This document shows positions 2,147 through 18,794 of a DNA stretch of 64,000 nt, piece by piece. The notes below the pieces were generated by a model. That model was not told where the DNA came from. It made no database searches and worked only from the letters and a program-made list of their open reading frames with translations. Where the stretch lies: sequence record PQ818761.1; one strand, given 5' to 3'. The translations under genes were made by a program, and so were the position numbers. The stretch is from Escherichia phage EcoM2. Every line of letters begins with the position of its first letter. The stretch's first letter is position 1.

Positions 2147-4513
2147 ATGCGCATGGTAAACGACCACGCAGAAGTGATTAAGAGTTCAACTTCTTTAGAG
2201 ACGTCTCAAGCACAGATTACAATGACACCTGAAATGTTCAGCCTTTTGAGTTCTGGTGTATATACCTTTAAAGAAAGGGCAGTGATTCGTGAACTGTCAT
2301 GTAACGCAGTAGATGCTCAGAAAGAAGCTGGAAAAGAGAATATCCCGTTCCATGTGCATTTACCTACTCGTTTTGAGCCTTACTTTGAAGTTCGTGATTT
2401 TGGAACTGGATTGACTCATGATAAAGTTATGAGTTTGTATCTAAATTACGGGGCTTCTACGAAGAATGACTCTAATGACTACATTGGTGCAATGGGTATC
2501 GGCTCAAAATCCCCATTTGCAATTGCTCAGTCATTCACAGTGTCTAGCTATGTTGACGGTGTTGTTAATAAGTACTCTGTTTATCTTGAGAATGGTATCC
2601 CTCAAGTAACTAAGCTGACCACTAACCCAACAAAAGAACCTAATGGTTTAGCTGTACGTGTGGCAGTTGCTGACCACCGTATTTCAAAGTTCTTTGAAGA
2701 GGCTGGTAATGTATACTCATACTTTGCTGTAAAACCAGAGAGTAATGTGGAGTATAATGATATATTAGCAGATATGGATGTGATTGCTCGTGAAGAAGGT
2801 GTCTATGATGCCATGACTCATAAGCATAGCTGGCGTTCAAGCAGCAATAGAACAGAGTTTAACGTGGTTATGGGTAATATTGCCTACCCAGTTAATATGG
2901 AGGCATTACTTGGTGATGATTTCTTCAAAGTCTTGCCAGAATTTTTCCGTAGGAGCGTAGACCTTGTAAACATCTACATGCCTATTGGTTCAGTTGCTAT
3001 CGCAGCTTCTCGTGAAGCATTGCAGATGAATGACACGACAAAAAATGTTATCATTGAGGCTACTAAAAAGATAACTGAAGCAATTACAAAGGATGTTATC
3101 AAGAAAGTTAATAGCCAACCTACACTCATGGATGCTGCACAGGCTTATGCTGAGTTACGTTTGAACTCACGAGAGATGTTTAATGCTGTGTGTCCAAAGC
3201 TAGAGTGGGGTGGTGTTAAGCTTGATTCTCTGGAAGAAGAATTACTAAACATTCGTCGTGGAATTATCTACGCAGAAGACGGCTCAGTCATTTATGAACG
3301 TGACGGCAAAGGTAATATTAAGGTTGATAGGAACGGGAACAATATCCCTAAAGTAGATTATCTTTATGACCCAGTTGCTTATGTCAAGTTCAACTCTTTA
3401 GAGAGTAAGATTCGTGCAACATCGCTTTCCTACACTCAAGAGGCAAGTATGTTCAATATCTTTGGTGCAATGCGTAAAAGCCAAATTGAACAGTTTTTGT
3501 TTGTTATAAATGACCGTCGCAATAAAAACGGTACTGAGAAGACTGTAGGACGCAATCAAATCTTGCGTGGTGCATGTCGAGACTATGCCAGTGAGTCTAG
3601 TCTGTTTCACAGATACAATGGTATTGTCTTTGTATTCTCGACTGAAAAAGAGCTAGATGACTTAATCAATCTACACAAACTTGACAAAAGCTTGTTAAAG
3701 ATTGTGAAGATGTCTGATAAGGAACACCATTATCAGCGTAAAGAAGCTGTAAGAGGTGTTGTAAAACTCTGGAAAGCTGTTCCAGCAGAAGGTGTAGCTT
3801 CCTATAAAGAGGTTTCAGAGGACTTAGACACAATTGAAGAGCCTCAACTTTATATCAAGGCAGTCGGTGACACAGTTGATGGCGAATGTTTTTGCTCATC
3901 TCCAGAAGATGTAGCTAAGTCAGTTGCCAATGTCATTGGAAAGACAGTCTATGTTTTCCGAAAAGCAAATTGGAAAAAGATACCAGAAGACTGGATTGAA
4001 GTAGATGAGAAGCTCTTGAACGACAGCTTAACTGATGTTCACTGGATTAACCATAACAGGTATATGACACGTATCTATATGAATGGTGTTCTTGACCTTA
4101 CAAGCAGTTGGATTATTGCCAGAAACTTTACGTTCAATAACAGGAAGATTTCTCGTGGCTATTGCTATTCACGAGACACAAACAAAACTATCTTCTTAGA
4201 AGGCAATGAAGATGCTGTAGAGGCAATGTTCGGTAAAATCCAATACGTTGCTGCACCGTTTGCATACACTTACACTATTAGCAGATTGCAAACTTTGAAA
4301 GAATGCCTTGACAATGATACAAAGCTATACAAGAAAATTAAGAAAGCTGGTGACCGTATGGTTATTAAGGTGACAAACTATCTTTCAAAAAGAAAACAAG
4401 AAAACTTCTTGCTTTCTCATTTAGATTGGAATAAAGTGTCACCCATCGAAGTGAGTAAGTTCTTAGGCTTTGATGTGAAGTGTGTTCCAGAAGGGACTAC
4501 AATTTACGATTAA
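2147..4513 (+). CDS. rIIA: rIIA-like protein with N-terminal GHKL-type ATPase fold
   Basis: 788 aa; Bergerat-fold-like motifs (VRDFGTGLT, GAMGIGSKS); size and position before a second large gene match the rIIA-rIIB pair of T4-like and Felix-O1-like phages. Confidence 0.55.
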   Translation: MRMVNDHAEVIKSSTSLETSQAQITMTPEMFSLLSSGVYTFKERAVIRELSCNAVDAQKEAGKENIPFHVHLPTRFEPYFEVRDFGTGLTHDKVMSLYLNYGASTKNDSNDYIGAMGIGSKSPFAIAQSFTVSSYVDGVVNKYSVYLENGIPQVTKLTTNPTKEPNGLAVRVAVADHRISKFFEEAGNVYSYFAVKPESNVEYNDILADMDVIAREEGVYDAMTHKHSWRSSSNRTEFNVVMGNIAYPVNMEALLGDDFFKVLPEFFRRSVDLVNIYMPIGSVAIAASREALQMNDTTKNVIIEATKKITEAITKDVIKKVNSQPTLMDAAQAYAELRLNSREMFNAVCPKLEWGGVKLDSLEEELLNIRRGIIYAEDGSVIYERDGKGNIKVDRNGNNIPKVDYLYDPVAYVKFNSLESKIRATSLSYTQEASMFNIFGAMRKSQIEQFLFVINDRRNKNGTEKTVGRNQILRGACRDYASESSLFHRYNGIVFVFSTEKELDDLINLHKLDKSLLKIVKMSDKEHHYQRKEAVRGVVKLWKAVPAEGVASYKEVSEDLDTIEEPQLYIKAVGDTVDGECFCSSPEDVAKSVANVIGKTVYVFRKANWKKIPEDWIEVDEKLLNDSLTDVHWINHNRYMTRIYMNGVLDLTSSWIIARNFTFNNRKISRGYCYSRDTNKTIFLEGNEDAVEAMFGKIQYVAAPFAYTYTISRLQTLKECLDNDTKLYKKIKKAGDRMVIKVTNYLSKRKQENFLLSHLDWNKVSPIEVSKFLGFDVKCVPEGTTIYD

Positions 4514-4592
4514 AGTGTTTGACAAGGGGCTTCAAAGCCCCTTAGAATAGCCTCACAAAATGATTTATTAACTAACAAGAGAGAGTAATAAG

Positions 4593-9157: not shown

Positions 9158-9350
9158 CTTCTGCAAAGACTGTTCTATAGAAATGTTTGGACGTGATACA
9201 GGTGACTTAAAAGGTCTTATCACTGAAGATGACTTTAAAGCTGGCTATGCAATGCCAGTAATCTGTGAAGGTTGCGGGTGTATCTGGGTAGACCACGAAG
9301 GACAACGTGTAAAACCTTCAGAAGATAAAGAGTCTTGGGAGAGATGTTAA
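9114..9350 (+). CDS. hypothetical Cys-rich protein
   Basis: 78 aa with CxxC and CEGCGC motifs. Confidence 0.4.
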   Translation: MVKESSFKRQLFMADFCKDCSIEMFGRDTGDLKGLITEDDFKAGYAMPVICEGCGCIWVDHEGQRVKPSEDKESWERC

Positions 9351-10130
9351 ATGGGTATTGTAAAAGTTGTGAAAGGTAACTTACTGGCTGCCTTCAAAAA
9401 CACAGATATCGAGTTAATTGCTCATGGTTGCAACTGTCGTAACCTCATGGGTGCTGGAATCGCTCAAAAAATTGCTAAGATTTTCCCAAAAGCTGAAGAA
9501 GCTGACAGGAAATTCCATAAGAAGTTTGGCTACAATGCTCACGATATAGGATACCAGATGATTGGTGAGGTGTCACATGCTCGAACAGAGTATGGTTACA
9601 TTTTTAACCTATATACACAGTTGGATGTTGGAAAGTGTGCATCATACCGATACTTAGTGGAGTCACTAGAAAAACTCCGTAAGTTTTGCTGGATGCACAA
9701 CATTCGTAAGATTGGTTTACCCATGATTGGGGCAGGTATCGGTGGGTTAGACGCACAAGCCGTGAAAAGCCTCATTAATAGCATTATGTACAACGTTGAT
9801 GTGTACCTATACGTCTATGATGAAGCAATGGCAACTGTAGTTACCCCTAAGTATGCCACCTCAGCACCACAATTCTATGATGGTGTTGTTCTCAGTGACG
9901 GTAAGTCTAACCATGTTACCCTCTATCAACTTGTTGAAGGTAAGGTAGAGGTTAGTTACCCTCTGGTTAGTGAGATGGGTATGTGTAACAGTGAAATGTT
10001 CTCAGTTGACCCGTTTGGTAGATACGAAGGGGTATTCTTTGATAACTACCCAGCAGCATACATCTACACAACAAATCAGGATGAAGTTCACTACTTGCTG
10101 TATTCTAAAAAGTTCAAATTCATAAGCTGA
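9351..10130 (+). CDS. macro-domain (ADP-ribose binding/processing) protein
   Basis: 259 aa; macro-domain-like motifs HGCNCRNLMGAGIA and LPMIGAGIGGL. Confidence 0.55.
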   Translation: MGIVKVVKGNLLAAFKNTDIELIAHGCNCRNLMGAGIAQKIAKIFPKAEEADRKFHKKFGYNAHDIGYQMIGEVSHARTEYGYIFNLYTQLDVGKCASYRYLVESLEKLRKFCWMHNIRKIGLPMIGAGIGGLDAQAVKSLINSIMYNVDVYLYVYDEAMATVVTPKYATSAPQFYDGVVLSDGKSNHVTLYQLVEGKVEVSYPLVSEMGMCNSEMFSVDPFGRYEGVFFDNYPAAYIYTTNQDEVHYLLYSKKFKFIS

Positions 10131-10163
10131 TTAGCACTTCACATTATCTACAAATCATCCAAG

Positions 10164-10210
10164 AAGGCTGCCTAACCAATTGAAAAATTTAAGGTAAGGC
10201 GGCCTTTTTC
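10164..10210 (+). terminator. putative terminator (long-loop hairpin plus T-run)
   Basis: AAGGCTGCC ... GGCGGCCTT followed by TTTTC. Confidence 0.4.
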
Positions 10211-10374
10211 ATTTCCAATTTGTGCAGGTATCTGTAGAGGTCTGCACAAATACCTCAAAAAATCTCACCTCCAGATAGAAAAATCATTTTCAAAACGTGC
10301 AGACCCCGCTCAGGTCGGGCAAGAAAAATCATTTTAGAATTGTGCAGGTAGGATTTTATAGAGAGCCAGACCAG

Positions 10375-10405
10375 CCCCTCTCCCCCTCTTACTCCCCCTC
10401 TCCCC
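10375..10405. other. C-rich tract (i-motif) / G-quadruplex motif on the complementary strand
   Basis: CCCC-tct-CCCCC-tcttact-CCCCC-tct-CCCC; four C-runs with 3/7/3-nt loops, unusual in this AT-rich genome. Confidence 0.5.
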
Positions 10406-10526
10406 AAAAGTCAAGAGAAAAATTTGTAGCGGATTGAAAAATAATTCTTGATTTGTGTTCTGTTTTGTGGTAGTCGTGTGCGCCCGTTTCATTACAGTTT
10501 TGCTAAAAATATTTTTAAAATTTTTC

Positions 10527-10618
10527 TTGACTCTTTGAACGTGGTTATCTAGTATTTGCATCAACAGGGAGGGAATGTCCTTCCCCACTAAATAAAGTCC
10601 TAAACTGGAGATTCAAAA
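10527..10618 (+). promoter_or_regulatory. early promoter module A (TTGACT-N17-TAGTAT) with 5'-leader hairpin and conserved RBS
   Basis: Sigma70-like hexamers; leader hairpin GGGAGGGAATGTCCTTCCCC; conserved ACTAAATAAAGTCCTAAACTGGAGATTCAAAAATG. Confidence 0.55.
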
Positions 10619-11002
10619 ATGAAATACCGTGCACCTAAATTCATCAACAAAGACAACTTTCGCAACGCACTGGAGAAGTCACTTGATGAAAGTTTTAAAG
10701 GTAACATTATCGTTGTTCACGCATTCAATTTTAAGTATGATGTAAACGGGAATAGAATCAACCATTACACGGCAACCATGTTAGATGGTACACTTTCAAG
10801 TGAAAAAGCCGTACTAAATGCACTGGCAGGACGTGGAAAGGTATTAGTAAGATGTGATAAGAGACGTTATCAGGGCGGCGCATATGGTTATGATGATGCT
10901 GTTTACCATCTTGAAAATATGGGCTATCAAGTAGAAAAAGCTGGAGCATCACAAATCATCGGCAGCGATGGTTATGTAACTATCTTCAAAATTAACAAAT
11001 AA
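10619..11002 (+). CDS. hypothetical early protein
   Basis: 127 aa; ATG preceded by conserved module-A leader with GGAG RBS. Confidence 0.6.
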   Translation: MKYRAPKFINKDNFRNALEKSLDESFKGNIIVVHAFNFKYDVNGNRINHYTATMLDGTLSSEKAVLNALAGRGKVLVRCDKRRYQGGAYGYDDAVYHLENMGYQVEKAGASQIIGSDGYVTIFKINK

Positions 11003-11007
11003 AGTGC

Positions 11008-11088
11008 TTTACAGGGGGCTTATAGTTCGATAAAGTAAGCCCCAGATAAAGAGCTTTACCACTAAATCCTAAATTGGAGAACTTAAAA
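11008..11088 (+). promoter_or_regulatory. early promoter module B (TTTACA-N17-TAAAGT) embedded in GGGGCTTA/TAAGCCCC hairpin, plus conserved leader
   Basis: Repeated 6 times with the same architecture; hairpin arms covary between copies. Confidence 0.5.
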
Positions 11089-11382
11089 ATGGCTATTATC
11101 AAAAACGTTGTAATTGCTGCAAAAACTCGTGATGACGCTCGCGTTATGGCTAAAAAGTTATGCGGGAAAGTGGTTGACAACGGAAAACAATCTGCTGTAA
11201 GGTGGGGCGTGAAGGTTGATAAACAGTTGAAGTTAAAAAATTCACCGATAAACCTTTTTACATGTGTAAACACTATCGGTAAGACAAATGTATACACGAA
11301 AAAGGCATACATTAGACGCGTAGCATTAACATCCCCCATTCGTACAATGAGAAGTTATGCAAAGCTGAAAATTAACAAATAA
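11089..11382 (+). CDS. hypothetical early protein
   Basis: 97 aa from ATG 11089 behind conserved RBS; track ORF start 11074 judged an upstream extension. Confidence 0.55.
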   Translation: MAIIKNVVIAAKTRDDARVMAKKLCGKVVDNGKQSAVRWGVKVDKQLKLKNSPINLFTCVNTIGKTNVYTKKAYIRRVALTSPIRTMRSYAKLKINK

Positions 11383-11387
11383 AGTAC

Positions 11388-11467
11388 TTTACAAGGGGCT
11401 TAAAAGCTGATACCTTAAGCCCCAGATAAAGAGCTTTACCACTAAATCCTAAACTGGAGATTCTAAA
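11388..11467 (+). promoter_or_regulatory. early promoter module B (TTTACA-N17-TACCTT)
   Basis: Copy of module B with hairpin GGGGCTTAA.../TTAAGCCCC. Confidence 0.5.
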
Positions 11468-11980
11468 ATGAAAACTGTAGACGCTACCTTTGAAGTTGTA
11501 AAAGAAAAATTTTCCATCATCTACGAAGCGGTAAATTGCTACGAAGCAAGCCATAATCTCGTTAATTGGGAGTTTACAAACGACCATCAAGGCGGTGTGA
11601 CTGTTAAAAATCCTAACTGTCAGCATAATGATTTTAAATATGCAAACCCTTTGCATTACAGCCTTAAACAGCTTTCAAGTGACTATGCAAAACAAGGCCG
11701 GGAAAATCCATCAAAAGAGGCTTACGCAAGCTTACAAAAAGAACTAGAAAGAGATTTAGAGGCTTCAGAGTACAACCTTGCCGCGAAAGTTGTGGATGCA
11801 AACGGTAACACGGTTTTAGAAAGTTTTTATCTTGGTTATGCTTTCGATTGGTGCTATCGTGACGGCGATGATTTAGAGGATAGACTAAAAGAAGAGGTGA
11901 ACAATTCAGACGCAGAAACTGAAGTATTAGAACGTTTGGAATCGTTGAAAGATTCAGTGATGAATATCTTTAAGAACTAA
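11468..11980 (+). CDS. hypothetical early protein
   Basis: 170 aa behind module-B leader. Confidence 0.6.
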   Translation: MKTVDATFEVVKEKFSIIYEAVNCYEASHNLVNWEFTNDHQGGVTVKNPNCQHNDFKYANPLHYSLKQLSSDYAKQGRENPSKEAYASLQKELERDLEASEYNLAAKVVDANGNTVLESFYLGYAFDWCYRDGDDLEDRLKEEVNNSDAETEVLERLESLKDSVMNIFKN

Positions 11981-11989
11981 ATAGACCTC

Positions 11990-12072
11990 TTTACACGGGG
12001 TTATCAAGTTGGTATGATAGCCCCAGATAAAGAGATTTATCAAATAAAGCCCTTAAACTAGGAGATTCTAAA
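11990..12072 (+). promoter_or_regulatory. early promoter module B variant (TTTACA-N17-TATGAT)
   Basis: Hairpin arms changed to GGGGTTATC/GATAGCCCC (compensatory). Confidence 0.5.
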
Positions 12073-12369
12073 ATGAAATTATCAAATCAAGTGCGTGAAA
12101 ATTTGAGCAAATTACTCAACAAAATTGATTTTATCGAGACATCAAGGAATAGGCATGATGTTATGGAATGGTTACACGGCAAAATAAAAGGTCGTCGTGT
12201 AGTGATTTGCTTATGGAACAGTTGCAGGGAGTATAAAAAACCTGTATTACAAGTTAATATATACGATAATACTTTTAAAAGTCCTGTAAAGTCTAAAAGC
12301 GATTTATTAGAATCCTATGAGATAACTGTAAATGGCAAAGTATCACGTAAAGAGGAAACACCATGTTAA
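12073..12369 (+). CDS. hypothetical early protein
   Basis: 98 aa behind module-B leader. Confidence 0.55.
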   Translation: MKLSNQVRENLSKLLNKIDFIETSRNRHDVMEWLHGKIKGRRVVICLWNSCREYKKPVLQVNIYDNTFKSPVKSKSDLLESYEITVNGKVSRKEETPC

Positions 12370-12695
12370 TGACTGGTATCACTGCAATCATTGCCATTTT
12401 CGCGCTATATAAGGCATATAAAGCCTATAATCTAGCAAGTAAGGCAATTACGCAGCAGGTTAGCAATAACCTTGTAGAAAGCTTTCTAGGGCGTCTCAGT
12501 GATGAGCAAATAAAGCGGCTAGAGATGAGCTTCAGATATAAAGCGAAAACCTATCAGATAAGTGACATCTTTAAAGATGATTTTCAGTTAGTTGATGATT
12601 ATAATTCTCTGATAAATGCTTTAAACATCAATGACTTGAAAGAATATCACGCTGTAATTGTTCAAGAATTGAGCAAACGAAAACAAATCTGTTGA
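12363..12695 (+). CDS. hypothetical early membrane protein
   Basis: 110 aa; N-terminal TM segment (ITAIIAIFALY); start overlaps preceding stop. Confidence 0.5.
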   Translation: MLMTGITAIIAIFALYKAYKAYNLASKAITQQVSNNLVESFLGRLSDEQIKRLEMSFRYKAKTYQISDIFKDDFQLVDDYNSLINALNINDLKEYHAVIVQELSKRKQIC

Positions 12696-12787
12696 CACTG
12701 GTTTTTAGATAGATTAAATTACACATCAACGGGGAGGGAATGACCTCCCCCCCCACTAAATAAAGTCCTAAACTGGAGATTCAAAAA
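12692..12787 (+). promoter_or_regulatory. early promoter module A (TTGACA-N17-TAAATT) with leader hairpin
   Basis: Same architecture as 13744..13837. Confidence 0.55.
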
Positions 12788-12946
12788 ATGTTTTGTGCAG
12801 GTGATAAAGTTGTCTGGAATGATATAGATGACGGTTTATGTACGAAAGTTGTTGTTATCTTAGAAATTGATTATATCACTGGTGTTGCAACTGTAGCAGA
12901 TAATGATATAATCTTTGATGTCTTAATTAGTGAACTGTCAAAATAA
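12788..12946 (+). CDS. small hypothetical protein (52 aa, below ORF-track cutoff)
   Basis: ATG 12788 directly behind module-A leader/RBS, TAA 12944-12946. Confidence 0.4.
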   Translation: MFCAGDKVVWNDIDDGLCTKVVVILEIDYITGVATVADNDIIFDVLISELSK

Positions 12947-12971
12947 AGTCCTTAAACTAGGAGATTCAAAA

Positions 12972-13244
12972 ATGTACACTACTAACAACGGTCGCACCTT
13001 AAACGTAACCCTACGCCACTATGTGAACGGTGTAATGCACTTCGAGGATTTACAAGCTGAACAGCACATTTTGGATTGGCAACTTGCAGGATTCCAAAAA
13101 ACTGCTACCGGATACGGGAAAAAGATTCCAACTAGCTGGAAAGTATACTACGAAGGCCGTTTGCGTAGAATTTATCAAGATGTATGCGGCAATAGCGCAT
13201 CAAGTTACATCATAGTAAAAGGCAAAAAGCTGCATTTAGCATAA
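12972..13244 (+). CDS. hypothetical early protein
   Basis: 90 aa from ATG 12972 behind conserved RBS; track ORF start 12930 judged an upstream extension. Confidence 0.55.
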   Translation: MYTTNNGRTLNVTLRHYVNGVMHFEDLQAEQHILDWQLAGFQKTATGYGKKIPTSWKVYYEGRLRRIYQDVCGNSASSYIIVKGKKLHLA

Positions 13245-13249
13245 AGTAC

Positions 13250-13329
13250 TTTACAAGGGGCTTATAAGTCTGTACAGTAAGCCCCAGATAAAGAGCTTTA
13301 CCACTAAATCCTAAATTGGAGATTCAAAA
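13250..13329 (+). promoter_or_regulatory. early promoter module B (TTTACA-N17-TACAGT)
   Basis: Copy of module B. Confidence 0.5.
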
Positions 13330-13734
13330 ATGGCTATTAATAATCGTGAGTTATCTATCTTAAAAGCACGTTTGACCGTTAACCGGATTAATGTTATCAC
13401 ATCAGCAGCACCGGATGAAACACTGCAAAACATTATTGGGAAGATTCAAAGTGTTATCTTAGACGTTGAAAGCGTAAAAAACTCATTGGCTGACGTTGCA
13501 GCCGGTATCACGCTAGACGGTGCACAACATGAGATGGCCGACATGTTAGGCAAATCAAAGGTAATGAATAAAGAATTAGACTTGAAAATGTTTCGATTTG
13601 CTGTTAAAGTGTGGCTATCCGTCGAGTATGACGCTAACTTTGCAATCGCTGACTTTTTCGCCACTTGGTTGCAGCGTAATTTGTCAAATCATGATTTTCG
13701 TAATATCTGTGATGCAATTTATGCAGAACTCTAA
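13330..13734 (+). CDS. hypothetical early protein
   Basis: 134 aa behind module-B leader. Confidence 0.6.
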   Translation: MAINNRELSILKARLTVNRINVITSAAPDETLQNIIGKIQSVILDVESVKNSLADVAAGITLDGAQHEMADMLGKSKVMNKELDLKMFRFAVKVWLSVEYDANFAIADFFATWLQRNLSNHDFRNICDAIYAEL

Positions 13735-13743
13735 AAAATTTTG

Positions 13744-13837
13744 TTGACACTGGTTTTTAGATAGATTAAATTACACATCAACGGGGAGGGGATGACCTTC
13801 CCCACTAAATAAAGTCCTTAAACTAGGAGATTCTAAA
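13744..13837 (+). promoter_or_regulatory. early promoter module A (TTGACA-N17-TAAATT) with leader hairpin
   Basis: Hairpin GGGGAGGGGATGACCTTCCCC then conserved leader. Confidence 0.55.
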
Positions 13838-14035
13838 ATGGCTATTATTAACGGCTTAACCATTGAAACAACACACATCAAAGATATCAAAGTTGGTGAT
13901 GTAGTCCTTTCCCACGGCGTAGAAAAAACTGTCACTGTAAAGGATATCAAAGAGGATTCTTTCATGGGTAGAACTCTCTTCGGTGATTCTTATTGCTTAG
14001 GTTATCTTGCAGTTTTAAAAGTTGTCAAAAATTAA
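13838..14035 (+). CDS. hypothetical early protein
   Basis: 65 aa behind module-A leader. Confidence 0.5.
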   Translation: MAIINGLTIETTHIKDIKVGDVVLSHGVEKTVTVKDIKEDSFMGRTLFGDSYCLGYLAVLKVVKN

Positions 14036-14047
14036 GTAATAAAGTAC

Positions 14048-14127
14048 TTTACAAGGGGCTTAAAAAGTTGGTATCTTAAGCCCCAGATAAAGAGCTTTAC
14101 ACAGTCCTTAAACTAGGAGATTAAAGA
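14048..14127 (+). promoter_or_regulatory. early promoter module B (TTTACA-N18-TATCTT)
   Basis: Copy of module B. Confidence 0.45.
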
Positions 14128-14376
14128 ATGATGAATTATTTAAACATTCCCGACACTTGCAGACTGTTAACGCAACCAGAAAATTTAGGTAAGGCTTACC
14201 TATACCATATGCCAAATAATACGGCAAAAACTTATAGTTACACTGTTAACCGATTCACGGCATACGCTGCAAAAAACGGTTACAAGGTTGTTACTCAAAA
14301 AGTAACACTGTTTACAACTGTTGAGGAACTCCCCACGGTTGCAGTTAAACTGATTTTTTCAAAGAAAACTAAATAG
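14128..14376 (+). CDS. hypothetical early protein
   Basis: 82 aa behind module-B leader. Confidence 0.5.
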   Translation: MMNYLNIPDTCRLLTQPENLGKAYLYHMPNNTAKTYSYTVNRFTAYAAKNGYKVVTQKVTLFTTVEELPTVAVKLIFSKKTK

Positions 14377-14381
14377 ATTTC

Positions 14382-14461
14382 TTTACACGGGGTTATCAAG
14401 CTGATAAGATAGCCCCAGATAAAGAAATTTATCAAATAAATCCTAAACTGGAGATTCAAAA
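14382..14461 (+). promoter_or_regulatory. early promoter module B variant (TTTACA-N17-TAAGAT)
   Basis: Hairpin GGGGTTATC/GATAGCCCC. Confidence 0.5.
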
Positions 14462-15004
14462 ATGAAATGTTTTCACGGTACTACTCAAGAAAACTTTATC
14501 AACCTGATTAATAACGGTGATAAACCATCAGGCGCATGGAATTGTTCTGATATGGATGGGAATTTTTACGTTTACCCAGAGAATAAAATCTATGGCGACG
14601 ATGAGGAAGAAATAATCTTTGAAGGTATCCAGCAAGCTCTGGGCAATGCCACTATCACCGCAGCTTTTCAGATGAAAACTCAAAACATTGTTATCTTGGA
14701 ACTTGAGATTCCAGAAGATGAGCTAAACGATGATTATTCTTGTGATAATATGTCGAGCGTGGCAAGTTTTACAGAATATTTCGATTTAAATTGGATTAAA
14801 AAGGTTTACATCACTGAATTTAATGCTATGTATTCGCCTTTTTGTCTTCCTTCACTGGATAACCCAAATATGAATTATCTTGATGAGACATTAGAACTAC
14901 TTGCTAAAAGTGTTCAACAATCGGACAGTATTCAGGTTTTTTGTGACATCATGGACACACTAACGGAAAACATCGCAGAAGAGGATTTAAAGAGCTTTTT
15001 CTAA
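14462..15004 (+). CDS. hypothetical early protein
   Basis: 180-aa acidic protein behind module-B leader. Confidence 0.6.
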   Translation: MKCFHGTTQENFINLINNGDKPSGAWNCSDMDGNFYVYPENKIYGDDEEEIIFEGIQQALGNATITAAFQMKTQNIVILELEIPEDELNDDYSCDNMSSVASFTEYFDLNWIKKVYITEFNAMYSPFCLPSLDNPNMNYLDETLELLAKSVQQSDSIQVFCDIMDTLTENIAEEDLKSFF

Positions 15005-15036
15005 AACCCTATGCAATCACATTATAAACACTATTC

Positions 15037-15057
15037 AGCCCCTTGTAGGGGCTTTTA
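15037..15057 (+). terminator. rho-independent terminator
   Basis: AGCCCC-ttgta-GGGGCT followed by TTTT. Confidence 0.55.
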
Positions 15058-15070
15058 AGAGGCTTAAATC

Positions 15071-15304
15071 ATGCTTACAACCGTTTATCTTATCCTTTCT
15101 ATATGTAATGGTCATTCATGCGATTTTAAAGGGCTTGAAGAGTTTACAGGAAGTAAAGAAAATGCTATTCAAGTTTGCCAGATAGCGAGACAAGACTATC
15201 CCGCAAGTGATGATATTCAGTGTTACTTTAAGACAGAAGATGAAGACGGTATCTATTTTGACAGTGTAGATGGTCAGTATGAAATTATCATTGAAAAAGA
15301 CTAG
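15071..15304 (+). CDS. hypothetical early protein
   Basis: 77-aa ORF. Confidence 0.45.
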   Translation: MLTTVYLILSICNGHSCDFKGLEEFTGSKENAIQVCQIARQDYPASDDIQCYFKTEDEDGIYFDSVDGQYEIIIEKD

Positions 15305-15395
15305 ACAAGCCTGATAAAAATCTGTAAATTGTCAATCAACGGGGAGGGAATGACCTTCCCCACTAAATAAAGTCCTTAAACTAGGAGATTCAAAA
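15302..15395 (+). promoter_or_regulatory. early promoter module A (TAGACA-N17-TAAATT) with leader hairpin
   Basis: Conserved TAAATT + 7 nt + ATCAACGGGGAGGGAATGACCTTCCCC. Confidence 0.5.
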
Positions 15396-15737
15396 ATGGC
15401 TTATGTAACCGTAATTACCGATAAAGCTGGCGCATCTTGGTCAACTCAAGTAAGCGATAAGATGTCACCTATGCAGTGCCTAAAATACTTTGAACAGTGG
15501 AATAAAGGCGAGGACACAAGCCCCTTTCAAGTGATGCAGATTATCCATGTAGACAACGAAGGGAATAAAACTGTTTTGAACAGTGAGTACTATGCAACCC
15601 GATTTGAAACGAGAAGTAAAACAATGAAACTTTTACGTGAATCCGGTTATTCCCATATCGCCGCGTTAATCTGGGATGACCTGCTAAAAAACCAACGTAT
15701 CAGCTATGTAAAACCTGAAAAAATATTCATCAGTTAA
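15396..15737 (+). CDS. hypothetical early protein
   Basis: 113 aa behind module-A leader. Confidence 0.6.
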   Translation: MAYVTVITDKAGASWSTQVSDKMSPMQCLKYFEQWNKGEDTSPFQVMQIIHVDNEGNKTVLNSEYYATRFETRSKTMKLLRESGYSHIAALIWDDLLKNQRISYVKPEKIFIS

Positions 15738-15866
15738 TCAATAACTTACAAAAAACTTTCAAAAAAGTATTGACAAAGCCCCTTGACATTGGTAGATTTG
15801 TTCGAGGGGGTTTATCTAAAAGGGATTAACTTAAAAGATTCTTTATAGATAAGCTCAAAAAATTAC

Positions 15867-15957
15867 TTGCAATCAACTATCAAAACAAGTAAATTACTAA
15901 TCAACGGGAAGGCAATAACCTCCCCACTAAATAAAGTCCTAAACTGGAGATTCTAAA
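15867..15957 (+). promoter_or_regulatory. early promoter module A (TTGCAA-N17-TAAATT) with leader hairpin variant
   Basis: Hairpin GGGAAGGCAATAACCTCCCC. Confidence 0.5.
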
Positions 15958-16488
15958 ATGAACAAATTTCAAGCTATCAACTTCATTCGTTCAAATGCTG
16001 TAATGTCAAAGCCTGTTAAAGACACCTATGAATTTCGTTGTAATGGTGTACATTTTGCAACAATCACCAAATCAGAAAACGGGGCTTATTACGTCCATCG
16101 TCGTAATGTTTCTACTGTTGTAGTTTCTCACTTTATGCAAGCTGTCGCGGAACTTCTCCCGATGTTTTTAGGTCTTTACTTAGATGAGTGTAAAAACGTT
16201 CACAATCACGTTAAAAACCTTTTAAACAGTTATAAAATGGCTTATGAACGTTCTATCAAGTCCTTAAACAAGTTTTACAACGCACCTGAAAATACTGTGT
16301 CAATGGCCTATGCTGTAAATGGTGATGCGGTGAGTCTCTTTGAAGTGGAAGAAATCAAGCTGCATGATTTACGCACTAGCGGTTACTCTAAGACTCTCGG
16401 TGAAGGTTTAACGTTCAATATCAAGAACTTAGAAAAAACTTTAAAAGATATTGAAAAAGATATTGACGAGACAATCAAAAGTCTGTAA
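15958..16488 (+). CDS. hypothetical early protein
   Basis: 176 aa behind module-A leader. Confidence 0.6.
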   Translation: MNKFQAINFIRSNAVMSKPVKDTYEFRCNGVHFATITKSENGAYYVHRRNVSTVVVSHFMQAVAELLPMFLGLYLDECKNVHNHVKNLLNSYKMAYERSIKSLNKFYNAPENTVSMAYAVNGDAVSLFEVEEIKLHDLRTSGYSKTLGEGLTFNIKNLEKTLKDIEKDIDETIKSL

Positions 16489-16554
16489 ATTGTCAATCAA
16501 CGGGGAGGGAATGACCTTCCCCACTAAGTAAAATCCTAAACTGGAGTTATCAAG
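16463..16554 (+). promoter_or_regulatory. early promoter module A (TTGACG-N17-TAAATT) with leader hairpin
   Basis: -35 lies within the 3' end of the upstream gene. Confidence 0.5.
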
Positions 16555-16818
16555 ATGGAAAACGTAGAATTAACCACACTTTTACAAATTGCAACCGACA
16601 AAGAAGACGTAGCATTATTTCACCGTATCGAAAGCGATTTATTCAATGGTGAAATCATCAAAGAATCTTATGAAGTTGTCGGATTCAAAGATGGTAAAGC
16701 ATTTGGCTTTTTTGACCTCGACAAAGGCAACGCGGTTACAAAATACGATGTTTTATCTTGTGAGATTCTGACAAAATACAACGAAAAAAGGCTTGCAACA
16801 TACGCCAACATGCAGTAA
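16555..16818 (+). CDS. hypothetical early protein
   Basis: 87 aa behind module-A leader. Confidence 0.55.
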   Translation: MENVELTTLLQIATDKEDVALFHRIESDLFNGEIIKESYEVVGFKDGKAFGFFDLDKGNAVTKYDVLSCEILTKYNEKRLATYANMQ

Positions 16819-16884
16819 ATTATCAATCAACGGGAGGCGATAACCTCCCCACTAAATAAAACCCTTAAACTAGGAGATTCAAAA
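16793..16884 (+). promoter_or_regulatory. early promoter module A (TTGCAA-N17-TAAATT) with leader hairpin variant
   Basis: Hairpin GGGAGGCGATAACCTCCCC. Confidence 0.5.
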
Positions 16885-17133
16885 ATGGCAACTATCCGCG
16901 CAACTGTCAATGCTTATGGCTGTTATACTCTGGACGTTAAATTTGATATTGGTGGAACTGATGAGTGTTTTTCATTAGTGAAGACAGTTATCAAGCAAGT
17001 TATCCCAGATTATAACCCTACTGATGACTTCTGGAAAGACGCTGTAAAAGAGGCATTAAACGACGAGCATCACTATCATTACTGGGGTGACTTGATTATC
17101 TCACTGTACTACAATAAACAAGGTTACAACTAA
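16885..17133 (+). CDS. hypothetical early protein
   Basis: 82 aa behind module-A leader; last gene of the array. Confidence 0.55.
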   Translation: MATIRATVNAYGCYTLDVKFDIGGTDECFSLVKTVIKQVIPDYNPTDDFWKDAVKEALNDEHHYHYWGDLIISLYYNKQGYN

Positions 17134-17171
17134 TCGACGCAACGGGGCTAAATAGCCCCAGATACCTTCAC

Positions 17172-17194
17172 AGCCCCATTTAAGGGGCTTTTTT
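17172..17194 (+). terminator. rho-independent terminator ending the early array
   Basis: AGCCCC-attta-AGGGGCT followed by TTTTTT; preceded by a second GGGGCT/AGCCCC hairpin. Confidence 0.65.
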
Positions 17195-17199
17195 ACGTC

Positions 17200-18750
17200 T
17201 ATGTAATAGCCCCTATACAATCCTTTCCCTTTCCTTTCCAGAATCTTACTAGACCTTAAAAGCAATAACTCTATAGCTTACTCTATAACCCCTTATCAAA
17301 TCAACTTAAATATAAGCCCATAACCCGAAAGGGAAGGGCAACCGTTTAAACGCTCTATAAAGCTCTATAACAGCCTTATCAACCTAACTTAAGGGATTGC
17401 ATTACCTCACCCTTAAAAGCCCTTTATAAAGCTTCTCAGAGCCTTAAAAGAATCTTATAAGGGTGTAAGCTTTATTATCTCGTTAGTTCCTTGTGAATAT
17501 CTAGAAAGGGCTATGAGATAGGAATCTATCGAATCCTATTGTTAGTGTCTTAAAAGTGTGTTATAGGGGCTATGAAGTTACTTCAAAGTTGCTTAAAAGT
17601 TACGTAAATGCTAGCCCCCTTAACATTTTCTTAACAATTTCTTAACAAACCCTACATAGTTATGCTTTTAAGGCACTTGTTAGCAACTTGTTAGCCCCTT
17701 GTTAAATCTCTGTTAAAACCACGTAAAAGCCTTGTAAGAGTCTTTGACATAGCCTTAAAAGCTCCTGTAAAGCTCTATAAAAAGGTGTCTGTACAGTTGG
17801 GGTGTAATTACTAGGAAGAGACTTAAAAGAGCTTACAAAGAGCTATAGAGAGCTTTTAAGAGGTATGTTTAAGGAATCACTAAGAAAGGAAAGGGAATGA
17901 TAAGAAAAGGGATAGTGACCATGTTAATAGCTTGTTAAAAAGATTAGACACTTGTTAGGAACTTGTTAATTATCTTAACAAAATAACTCTTAAAAATTAA
18001 CTTGTTAGCTCTTGTTAGTCACTGTTAAGACTCTGTAAAGACCATGTATCGACTGTTAAGAACTTGTTACAGCCTTGTTAGTTCTGTTAAGAGTCTGTTA
18101 AGACCTCTGAAGAGATGTTAAGAGCTTGAGAGAGTTGTTAAGAGATTGTTAAGGATATTTTAAAATTCTGCAAAGGGGATGTTACAGGGATGTTAAGGGC
18201 TACCAAGCAGATATACATCCTAGACAGATATTTTTCAGTTCCTTCAAAAACCCTAAAAAATGACTTGATAGCCCTATTTTATAAAAATTTTAAAAATCTG
18301 AATAATTACCTAGACAGTCTTTCAAAAATACAGGTAGAAACAGGCTTATAAGATACCTTGTTAGTACCGTGTTAGACCTTGTGAGATAAGGTCTGTAAAG
18401 ATATTCCTGTTAAGTTTGTTAAAACAGTCTATATAGAGGCTTAGTAATACCTAGTGAACACCTATAGAGGGTCATCTATGTGACATAGAGATTAAGAGGT
18501 GTATAGGAGCTTCTAAGAATGTGTAGAGAGATGGTTAAGGTGATTGTATAGGTTGTTAAGAATGCTTGTTAGAAGAGTGTTTAGAAGGGCTATACAGATG
18601 GGCTATTAAGACCACTAGATAGATACTAAGATACTATATAGTACTATATAACTGTATATAGAGAGTAAGCTTAAGAAGGGTGTTAAGAAGGATAGATATT
18701 TTATTCACATATGATGGTGACCCAGAGGTTGGGACAACCGATAAAATTTT
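17200..18750. repeat. 1.6-kb repeat-rich region with no ORF of 60 aa or more (dense GTTAAG/CTTGTTAG/CTTAAAAG/CTATAAAG words)
   Basis: No ORF of 60 aa or more in any frame on the track; tens of short related words, some in inverted orientation (CTTAAC x3 at 17618-17646); lies between convergent transcription units. Confidence 0.6.
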
Positions 18751-18756
18751 ATAAAA

Positions 18757-18783
18757 ATTAAAAAGCCCCCAATTAAGGAGGCT
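18757..18783 (-). terminator. rho-independent terminator (minus strand)
   Basis: Minus-strand read AGCCTCC-ttaatt-GGGGGCT followed by TTTTTAATTTTT. Confidence 0.5.
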
Positions 18784-18794
18784 CTTAAGATATT

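Follow-up and report, generated by a model that had tools for sequence, protein, structure and literature searches.

The closest described counterparts of the gene array analysed here are the PeSL (promoter-early stem-loop) units of T4-like phages (Arbiol et al. 2010, PMC2839356; Comeau et al. 2014, PMC4122927), in which a sigma-70-type early promoter, a GGGG...CCCC stem-loop, a ribosome site and an ATG form one intergenic unit. They cluster in a hyperplastic region whose small ORFs have no known function; there, close relatives differ by indels that have these units at their borders, and crossovers fall between the -10 element and the ATG. All of this is shared by the cassettes of Escherichia phage EcoM2, a member of the Ounavirinae. 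On the other hand, the PeSL stem-loop is located just upstream of the -35 element and terminates transcription, whereas the EcoM2-type stem-loop has no U-tract and either encloses the spacer and -10 element (cassette B), or is part of the 5' UTR (cassette A), or (in an Erwinia relative) holds a -10 or -35 element in its loop. The Ounavirinae array also differs in having two cassette families with one leader and, in cassette B, a long two-tier hairpin. A likeness to T4 PeSLs, proposed in a preliminary description of this DNA, therefore holds for behaviour and not for anatomy: the Felix O1-like cassettes work like T4-type PeSLs but are more compact, differently built and found in another subfamily.

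The same sequences have been recorded before as direct repeats of Felix O1 (Whichard et al. 2010, PMC3185647) and as DR_1 to DR_9 of wV8 (EU877232). Cassette B is found there as the 57-bp repeat CTTTACATGGGGCTTAAAAGTCTGTAAAGTAAGCCCCAGATAAAGAGCTTTACCACT, and the cassette A promoter as the 39-bp repeat TTGACACTGGTTTTTAGATAGATTAAATTACACATCAAC; both were listed as repeats only and are absent from the promoters predicted in that study (PMC3185647). New here is the recognition of these Felix O1/wV8 repeats as putative promoters, hairpins and gene-shuffling sites, since earlier annotators listed them without interpreting them.

The window (the whole stretch of 64,000 nucleotides analysed, PQ818761.1) belongs to a Felixounavirus with 92-94% identity to ASO1A, PHB11 and VpaE1. 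Within 10527-17200 we confirmed 16 small ORFs of 52-180 aa, all on the + strand at 10619-17133, and with them the core observation of the preliminary description, a small-gene array behind two conserved cassettes. In order (ORFs a, b, c, d, e, f, g, h, g2, i, j, k, l, m, n and o) they encode 127, 97, 170, 98, 110, 52, 90, 134, 65, 82, 180, 77, 113, 176, 87 and 82 aa. We consider it probable that the locus holds accessory genes of this Felix O1-like myovirus in a hyperplastic array built of standardised, self-contained expression units.

Function is unknown for ORFs a (10619..11002, PHROG 4495), b (11089..11382, PHROG 5089), c (11468..11980), d (12073..12369), g (12972..13244, PHROG 3436), h (13330..13734), g2 (13838..14035, PHROG 3623), i (14128..14376), l (15396..15737) and n (16555..16818). 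ORF e (12363..12695) has an N-terminal hydrophobic helix, and ORF f (12788..12946) has no family match. The product of ORF j (14462..15004), with homologues in Ounavirinae only, gave a weak match to the ADP-ribosyltransferase fold, and that of ORF m (15958..16488) has a confidently predicted structure (pLDDT 92) with no informative fold match. ORF o (16885..17133) is the last gene. The array ORFs probably serve early, dispensable host-interaction or counter-defence functions; a role in host takeover is plausible, albeit unproven. The designation of these genes as early stands only in part: by RT-PCR in Felix O1, expression of genes 16, 20, 21 and 22 (homologues of four array genes) was highest at 5 min, but genes 17, 19 and 23 (three other homologues) peaked at 25 min (PMC3185647), so that "early" is not uniform, and transcription timing in such phages is an open question (PMC3185647, PMC4690856).

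The claim that every ORF follows one of the two cassettes holds for 13 of the 16 (seven behind A, six behind B) and fails for ORFs e, g and k. The start of ORF e overlaps the stop of ORF d, ATGTTAATGA. ORF g is preceded by a leader and ribosome site without promoter (AAATAAAGTCCTTAAACTAGGAGATTCAAAA, 12947..12971), at the junction of ORF f with the ORF g leader. ORF k (15071..15304), with its own AAGAGG site, lies just downstream of a terminator-like hairpin within the array (GCCCCTTGTAGGGGC then TTTT, 15037..15056), the homologous site of wV8 being annotated as a terminator. A -35 or -10 element often contains the stop codon of the gene before it, as with the TGA of ORF e (within the -35 of A2), the TAG of ORF k (within the -35 of A4) and the TAA of ORF m, with which the -10 of A6 begins.

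The seven copies of cassette A, all on the + strand like the B copies, are A1 (10527..10618; -35 TTGACT 10527-10532, -10 TAGTAT 10550-10555, hairpin 10567-10585, followed by the leader and GGAG site), A2 (12692..12787; TTGACA 12692-12697, TAAATT 12715-12720, hairpin 12731-12751), A3 (13744..13837; TTGACA 13744-13749, TAAATT 13767-13772, hairpin 13783-13803), A4 (15302..15395; TAGACA 15302-15307, TAAATT 15325-15330, hairpin 15341-15361), A5 (15867..15957; TTGCAA 15867-15872, TAAATT 15890-15895, hairpin 15906-15925), A6 (16463..16554; TTGACG 16463-16468, TAAATT 16486-16491, hairpin 16502-16522) and A7 (16793..16884; TTGCAA 16793-16798, TAAATT 16816-16821, hairpin 16832-16849). The -35 consensus TTGNNA given earlier is thus too strict. 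Cassette B is represented by B1 (11003..11088; -35 TTTACA 11008-11013, -10 TAAAGT 11031-11036, two-tier hairpin 11000-11058), B2 (11383..11467; TTTACA 11388-11393, TACCTT 11411-11416, two-tier hairpin 11380-11438), B3 (11981..12072; variant stem GGGGTTATC/GATAGCCCC, -35 11990-11995, TATGAT 12013-12018, hairpin 11981-12040), B4 (13245..13329; -35 13250-13255, TACAGT 13273-13278, hairpin 13242-13300), B5 (14036..14127; -35 14048-14053, TATCTT 14072-14077, hairpin 14040-14099) and B6 (14377..14461; lower stem fully paired, -35 14382-14387, TAAGAT 14405-14410, hairpin 14373-14432). The 17-nt spacer ascribed to this cassette was found in all but B5, which has 18 nt. A stand-alone predicted promoter, TTGACA-17-TAGATT with TGn, lies at 15770..15813 (+), its spacer and -10 element in a hairpin GCCCCTTG/CGAGGGGG.

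The exact B pattern matched six times (none in 100 shuffles) and the leader pattern three and seven times (about none expected). HMMs built from the cassette copies recovered 13 of 13 with E values of 1e-20 to 1e-28; neither the rest of the 64-kb window nor the remaining 37.6 kb of a relative's genome yielded a further copy. A consensus promoter scan of this AT-rich DNA gave 33 sites versus 23.5 ± 4.9 in shuffles and was thus not enriched, so that the promoter assignment rests on the pattern of conservation and on position. From 17 related loci we collected 170 distinct copies, 87 of A and 83 of B. Among the A copies the TTG of the -35 is kept in 73-87, T1, A2 and T6 of the -10 never vary, and the 17-nt spacing is fixed while the spacer bases differ. 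TTTACA is present in 83 of 83 B copies, the 17-nt spacer in 78 of 83, and T1, A2 and T6 of the -10 in 83, 83 and 82, respectively, with the three middle -10 positions varying freely and TGn in 39. This in silico behaviour, with only promoter-relevant bases invariant, supports the assignment of both cassettes as putative sigma-70 promoters; a literature search found no Felixounavirus transcriptome.

The GC-rich hairpin of cassette A begins about 3 nt past the predicted start, and all distinct copies fold at the same place (dG -7.5 to -17 kcal/mol). In some relatives the stem differs with compensation on both sides (GGGC/GCCC, GGGGC/GCCCC, GGGA/TCCC), although these are slippage-tolerant purine/pyrimidine tracts, which makes the kept pairing weaker evidence than it appears. 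The B hairpin (~59 nt, ~21-23 bp, with a 3x3 internal loop) surrounds its own promoter in two tiers, the lower stem being formed by flanking arms TAAAGTACTTTA and TAAAGAGCTTTA; the preliminary description correctly placed the spacer and -10 element within a hairpin but made it too small. All six copies yield the identical two-tier minimum-energy structure (dG -21 to -25, z -3 to -6.4), and over 65 distinct copies 93.4% of cells are paired, a share that falls to 30-55% on sliding the partners. At one pair, the G-C of 51 copies is replaced by U-A in 9; covariation within the genus amounts to one doubly changed pair and may reflect a single inherited event. In the Erwinia phage phiEa21-4 the fold is kept through compensatory changes, with an upper stem GGUGUUUA/UAAGCACC. 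Overall, these data support the cassette hairpins as real and maintained.

The pairing also bears on another reading of cassette B, that its arms (TAAAGTACTTTA over the -35, TAAAGAGCTTTA at about +3) serve as DNA operators at which a dimeric phage or host regulator shuts off the promoter, the hairpin being a by-product. Both arms are near-perfect palindromes at typical repressor positions, a putative transcriptional regulator is annotated elsewhere in the relatives' genomes, and the timing of transcription is open, as mentioned above. Nevertheless, we regard this as improbable: the 5' arm of the B3/B6 class (TAGACCTCTTTA or TAGATTTCTTTA) has lost its palindrome but keeps its pairing with the 3' arm, where the matching changes are found (G-C to U-A at 6-57, a new U-A at 8-55), and the upper stem, outside the arms, is compensated in the Erwinia phage too. 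The operator and hairpin readings of cassette B are mutually compatible.

It is likewise unlikely that the stem-loops are ordinary terminators, the unit being a terminator followed by a promoter as in T4-type PeSLs, with no RNA-processing or stabilising role. PeSL stem-loops, also GGGG...CCCC, do terminate in reporter assays (PMC2839356), several of the hairpins were labelled terminators by the annotators of ASO1A and wV8, and one hairpin of the Erwinia phage array is a true terminator, with the -35 of the following promoter as its loop. However, no T-run follows any A or B hairpin (B is followed by AGATAAAG, A by ACTAAATAAAG), and the A hairpin, lying downstream of its own promoter, would as a terminator end its own transcript. 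The + strand terminator scan yielded only 17172-17189, a canonical intrinsic terminator that with its T-run (to 17195) closes the array; the terminator-like sites on this strand are only this one and that at ~15037-15056. A cassette-like half hairpin, CAACGGGGCTAAATAGCCCCAGATA, is located at the array end (17144..17159, +).

In the working model that we favour, a unit would hold a single small ORF, transcribed from a host sigma-70 promoter and preceded by a GC-rich hairpin and the common 5' leader, which carries a GGAG ribosome site. A stem-loop at the 5' end of an mRNA can protect it against 5'-end-dependent decay, the hairpin of the ompA 5' UTR being a stabiliser of this type. Provided that cassette A transcripts start at the conserved ATCAAC, as we infer, the hairpin GGGGAGGG...CCTTCCCC would lie ~3 nt from the 5' end. 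The likeness to ompA is thus a stable hairpin at most ~3 nt from the predicted 5' end of all cassette A units; the difference is that the A hairpin would also be contained in read-through RNA, where other roles are possible, and that the 5' end is a predicted one. Between the small early cistrons of T7, transcribed by host RNA polymerase, lie irregular RNase III hairpins of ~60 nt and ~20 bp with an internal loop. The B hairpin resembles them in size, internal loop and place between early cistrons, but the T7 sites carry no promoter and belong to one long transcript from three upstream promoters, whereas the B hairpin overlies a promoter. The transcript of cassette B itself would start inside the 3' arm, so that the full two-tier hairpin would form only in read-through RNA from the upstream gene. 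There it would most likely mark the RNA for processing or protect its 3' end, in the style of the RNase III sites of T7, and each unit would thereby be insulated. A small CCU...AGG stem in the leader with its GGAG site, common to cassettes A and B, would hide part of the ribosome site and might standardise translation. Within this leader, a T and an A insertion 6 nt apart are linked in 205 of 207 cases, a pattern that may be no more than two haplotypes.

Gain and loss of genes with cassettes as the boundaries, suggested earlier as a check, was clearly evident among the relatives. Gene-order strings differ by whole units (gene plus cassette), and the same gene is found behind A in some loci and behind B in others; for example, ORF l follows B, not A, in loci with an insertion of ORF t or v upstream of it. 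ORFs d, f, h and i are present in 16, 7, 17 and 6 of the 17 loci, respectively, ORF h behind eight different B cores; conversely, one B core precedes five different genes. ORF a is missing in some relatives, ORF c was lost from VpaE1 and wV8 through a B x B crossover, and ORF n from several relatives via A x A crossovers. Deletion junctions carry chimeric cassettes with crossovers between the -10 element and the ATG, and 64 of 87 homology breakpoints (74%) fall in the cassette zone, which makes up 30% of the array (2.4-fold enrichment, p = 1.5e-16), most others lying at most 6 nt from a start codon. The expected variability was also borne out, the region showing much stronger mosaicism than two controls: at least 80% coverage was found in 4 of 258 related records, as opposed to 203 of 305 and 210 of 276. 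The comparison shows that related phages gained, lost and re-wired array genes by recombination inside the cassettes. These act as portable homology, with crossovers mostly between -10 and ATG that delete, insert or exchange single ORFs, so that close relatives carry different gene sets; crossovers also swap promoter cores between positions, leaving the neighbours intact.

The greater conservation of cassettes than of genes, claimed previously, is true between positions within one genome but not between orthologous positions of different phages, where cassettes are 88.5% and ORFs 88.3% identical. Such gene-like divergence, and the confinement of the copies to one locus, could suggest promoters that are passive relics of an old intergenic tandem duplication, the turnover being due to unrelated illegitimate recombination. 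This is very unlikely and already largely refuted by the breakpoint enrichment, by deletion junctions at which the two flanking cassettes form clean chimeras, and by identical B cores before different genes across genomes. Even less credible are selfish miniature transposable or homing-type elements spread by their own enzyme. The cassettes are indeed repeated, have inverted-repeat character and are tied to insertions and deletions, and a dedicated recombinase was suggested by the PeSL authors; yet no copy lies outside the array in the ~100 kb examined, target-site duplications and a transposase were not found in the array, IMG/VR motif matches occur only in Felix O1-like contigs, and the copies share one orientation, in register with the ORFs.

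The array occupies its usual place in the Felix O1 layout, preceded by rIIA/rIIB and a putative phosphatase gene and followed first by 1.6 kb without genes and then by a block of opposite-strand genes. A megablast search with 10400-17300 matched 258 phage records, nearly all of them Felixounavirus (Felix O1-like myoviruses of Escherichia, Salmonella, Shigella and Citrobacter), with the best matches to ASO1A, PHB11 and VpaE1 derivatives (92-94% identity). The interval 10619-17133 is filled by 16 plus-strand ORFs (52-180 aa), and the only canonical plus-strand terminator called by the terminator scan (17172-17189) closes the array. The preliminary description placed each of these small genes behind one of two promoter/leader cassettes, A or B, which holds for 13 of the 16 (7 behind A and 6 behind B). 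The three remaining plus-strand ORFs differ: ORF 12972 has only the leader upstream, ORF 15071 is preceded by a terminator-like hairpin, and ORF e (12363-12695) has a start codon overlapping the preceding stop. The latter is translationally coupled to ORF d (12073) via ATGTTAATGA, and its product is probably membrane-anchored, as judged from a hydrophobic N-terminal helix (MLMTGITAIIAIFALY). ORFs 12972 and 13838 were considered as a single family, but direct BLAST detected no similarity between them, leaving the array without paralogues.

Module A (7 ORFs) consists of a -35 element, a 17-nt spacer, TAAATT or TAGTAT, ATCAAC, a GGGGAGGG...CCTTCCCC hairpin and a leader of the form ACTAAATAAAGTCCT(T)AAACT(A)GGAGATTCAAAAATG. 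Module B (6 ORFs) comprises ATAAAGTACTTTACA, GGGGCTTA, a variable loop, TAAGCCCC and AGATAAAGAGCTTTAC, followed by the A-type leader. In both types, GGAG is conserved 8-9 nt before the ATG (13 of 13 units). Pattern searches returned 6 matches to the exact B pattern and 3 and 7 matches to the leader, none being expected, and HMMs built from the copies recovered all 13 cassettes with E-values of 1e-20 to 1e-28. Neither the rest of the window nor the remaining 37.6 kb of ASO1A yielded a further copy in the HMM search, and within IMG/VR the cassette motifs were confined to Felix O1-like contigs, with no match in other phage groups.

The information in a sigma-70 promoter resides in the -35 element, the spacing and positions T1, A2 and T6 of the -10 element. 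A plain consensus scan yielded 33 sites versus 23.5 expected, i.e. no enrichment in this AT-rich DNA, picking up 11 of the 13 cassette promoters and one more at 15770. Stronger evidence comes from the pattern of conservation among 93 A and 91 B copies (87 and 83 distinct, respectively) gathered from the window and 16 related loci. The -10 of the distinct A copies always keeps T1, A2 and T6, and TTG is found 17 nt upstream in nearly all, with spacers of at least six unrelated sequence types. Among the distinct B copies, TTTACA is invariant, 78 of 83 have a 17-nt spacer, and the -10 retains T1 (83/83), A2 (83/83) and T6 (82/83) with its three middle positions free to vary; half of them carry TGn. 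The earlier suggestion that the cassettes carry promoters is thus borne out in silico, the promoter-critical bases being kept over 170 distinct copies while others vary, a pattern pointing to promoters of the sigma-70 type in both A and B. The stop codons of upstream genes often fall within the next promoter: on the plus strand, TGA at 12693 (TTGACA) and TAG at 15302 (TAGACA) lie inside -35 elements, and TAA at 16486 and 16816 (TAAATT) inside -10 elements. An additional stand-alone plus-strand promoter, TTGACA-17-TAGATT (15770-15813), is enclosed in a GCCCCTTG/CGAGGGGG hairpin and precedes cassette A5 by about 100 nt, so that ORF 15958 appears to have tandem promoters; the 220-nt spacer that holds it is also present in relatives.

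The A hairpin folds at the same spot, 5 nt after TCAAC, in every distinct copy despite indels and substitutions (dG of -7.5 to -17 kcal/mol), and some relatives have quite different stems compensated on both sides (GGGC/GCCC, GGGGC/GCCCC, GGGA/TCCC). It starts 11 nt downstream of the -10. Were transcription to begin at the conserved ATCAAC (7-9 nt past the -10), about 3 nt would separate the hairpin from the 5′ end, a position that would suit a 5′-terminal stem-loop mRNA stabiliser, which needs its hairpin within a few unpaired nucleotides of that end. We also considered a leader peptide, as an ATG in the loop would open a 6-codon ORF (ATGACCTTCCCCACTAAATAA); this was rejected because many copies have a GATAA or AATAA loop with no ATG. 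An Rfam search turned up no relevant family; its sole match, to STnc280, was sub-threshold and lay on the wrong strand. In the Felix-type leader itself, UCC(U) pairs with (A)GGA, and the two one-base insertions of the leader are linked in 205 of 207 copies.

The B hairpin exists as first described but is larger, since the flanking arms TAAAGTACTTTA and TAAAGAGCTTTA also pair with each other. As a result, all six copies form the same two-tier hairpin, in which a 3x3 internal loop separates the lower stem (11-13 bp) from the upper one (9-10 bp) and the loop at the top holds the -10 (dG of -21 to -25 kcal/mol, z of -3 to -6.4). Over 65 distinct copies, 93.4% of the cells are paired versus 30-55% with the partners slid; one pair, G-C in 51 copies, has switched to U-A in 9, and two more vary in a pair-compatible manner. 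The symmetry of the arms could instead reflect two separate protein-binding palindromes. However, the 5′ arm of the B3/B6 class has lost its palindromic character and yet still pairs with the 3′ arm, which argues for arm-to-arm pairing. Given pairing between the arms, the full structure would be possible only in read-through RNA, because the cassette's own predicted start lies within its 3′ half.

A syntenic array of 17 small ORFs is present in the Erwinia phage phiEa21-4 (Kolesnikvirus, 9265-16600), which has its own cassette families of the same design. Among them are a B-like two-tier hairpin with an upper stem GGTGTTTA/TAAGCACC, compensated relative to GGGGCTTA/TAAGCCCC, promoters in which the -10 forms the loop of a GC stem, a true terminator with the next -35 as its loop, and a common leader in which CCUU pairs with the AAGG ribosome site, comparable to the pairing in the Felix-type leader. 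This shared hairpin/promoter/leader layout indicates that the cassette design, and not only its sequence, is maintained across the subfamily. One gene of the phiEa21-4 array is annotated as 'immunity to superinfection'.

To follow gene turnover, we annotated the array in 16 related loci (14 Felixounavirus, Moogle and SUSP1). Gene order is collinear, with whole units gained or lost: families a, b, c, f, i, m and n occur in some loci but not in others, and extra families (r, q, s, t, u, v) appear in relatives. Either A or B may precede the same gene, depending on the upstream neighbour ('Aa' vs 'Ar Ba'; 'Al' vs 'At Bl'). Junction alignments revealed clean chimeric cassettes. For example, the cassette before ORF o in PHB11 matches the ORF n cassette of the window in its promoter and hairpin and the ORF o cassette in its ribosome-site end; corresponding deletions of m and m+n are seen in VpaE1_ev78 and Si3, and in wV8 a B x B crossover has removed ORF c. 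Homology blocks end internally at 87 points. The cassette zone, 30% of the array, accounts for 64 of them (p = 1.5e-16), and the others mostly lie no more than 6 nt from a start codon. From genome to genome, identical B cores precede different genes, and ORF h occurs downstream of eight distinct cores. Chimeric junctions, breakpoints and swapped promoter cores agree in showing the cassette-bounded gain and loss among relatives that the preliminary description proposed to look for. The region is also as variable as it anticipated: at coverage of at least 80% with equal-sized queries, the array was matched by only 4 of 258 records, whereas the terminase-portal and rII regions were matched by 203 of 305 and 210 of 276, respectively. 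On the other hand, its view that the cassettes are much more conserved than the genes applies only to positions within one genome; at orthologous positions the cassettes show no advantage over the ORFs (88.5% for cassettes vs 88.3% for ORFs).

These features invite comparison with the promoter-early stem-loop (PeSL) cassettes of T4-like phages, in which a sigma-70 promoter and a ribosome site are combined with a GGGG...CCCC terminator stem-loop just upstream, and which mediate indels by crossovers between the -10 and the ATG (PMC2839356, PMC4122927). The likeness drawn in the preliminary description applies to behaviour. Like PeSLs, the cassettes cluster in a hyperplastic region of small non-conserved ORFs, undergo indels and replacements between close relatives with crossovers inside the units, carry a predicted sigma-70-like early promoter and, in the 13 units, end with a ribosome site and start codon. 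It does not extend to the position, and probably not to the nature, of the stem-loop: instead of preceding the promoter, the B hairpin encloses the spacer and the -10 while the A hairpin lies downstream of the predicted start, and neither is followed by a T-run in any copy or called by the terminator scan. In Felix O1, 57-bp and 39-bp sequences were listed as direct repeats and not called promoters (Whichard et al., PMC3185647); the wV8 record marks DR_1 to DR_9 in the array region, and the ASO1A annotation has a promoter followed by a terminator 10 nt later. Our literature searches found no paper tying PeSL-type elements to Felix O1-like phages and no Felixounavirus transcriptome. Overall, the array cassettes are a real, well-supported feature with PeSL-like behaviour, outside the anatomical definition of PeSL and in another subfamily.

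In its predicted fold, the B hairpin also resembles T7-type RNase III sites (about two turns of dsRNA, often with an internal loop, between cistrons), and this fold is kept in the 65 distinct copies and in phiEa21-4. A rather improbable reading takes cassette B and its relatives with a -10 or -35 in the hairpin loop as deliberately superimposed dual elements. The same ~59 bp would act as a sigma-70 promoter on DNA and as a processing hairpin in read-through RNA only. The predicted cleavage zone, on the 3′ side of the internal loop (AGA), would coincide with the promoter's own predicted start, so that read-through and local messages would share a 5′ end and the standard leader. If true, cassette B would be a natural 'insulator part', making the expression of a swapped-in gene independent of its neighbours. 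More speculatively, the palindrome might extrude on supercoiled injected DNA, offering a single-stranded -10.

In line with the initial impression that none of the ORFs is recognisable, none of the 16 has a Pfam match, and all PHROG families matched are of unknown function. ORF m (15958-16488) gave a confident structure model with no informative match; its homologues carry a precomputed assignment to Pfam family PF26821.1, which the Pfam copy searched here lacks. The ADP-ribosyltransferase fold is a split, NAD-binding beta-sheet with catalytic H-Y-E or R-S-E residues. A weak but consistent signal of this fold was obtained for ORF j (14462-15004), with motifs CFHGTT, YVYP and ELEIPEDE. ORF j may belong to the same family as gp107 of Bas63, described as similar to a Tpt1 NAD-binding domain and as conditionally needed in one host (PhageMaP preprint, PMC11482910). 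By RT-PCR in Felix O1, genes 16, 20, 21 and 22, which correspond to families c, h, l and m, peaked at 5 min, as against 25 min for genes 17, 19 and 23 (PMC3185647). A host-takeover role is a reasonable hypothesis for the array genes, and the cassettes flag 20-odd small gene families as candidates for host-takeover or counter-defence screens.

Gene shuffling by regulatory cassettes, described for T4-like phages, is hereby extended to another phage group in wide use, with applications in diagnostics, biocontrol and therapy. It explains the large accessory-gene differences between near-identical Felix O1-like isolates and adds a missing piece to the picture of early transcription in these phages: more promoters are predicted here than in the published annotations examined. 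The cassettes, each a small natural expression unit with a promoter, an RNA-end element and a standard leader, also mark safe insertion points for engineering.

Several observations concern the surroundings of the array. The upstream 'phosphatase' gene (9351-10130) has two very different alleles among otherwise close Felixounaviruses, its protein being ~96% identical to the window copy in 2 relatives and only ~40% in 14. Three TGTGCAGGTA-like motifs lie in the non-coding lead-in to the array (10213-10420), which also has an inverted repeat TTGTGCAG...CTGCACAA and a tract rich in C (CCCCTCTCCCCCTCTTACTCCCCCTCTCCCC). The 1.6 kb without ORFs (17200-18790), a gap in all relatives, is dense in short iterons (TGTTAAGA, CTTGTTAG, CTTAAAAG) with ~11-nt phase in both orientations, and could be an origin, packaging or partition-type region. 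Finally, a promoter-like TTGACA, aGGGGCTTcaaAGCCCCt, TAGAAT at 4507-4569, outside the array, has a hairpin in its spacer and weakly matches the B model.
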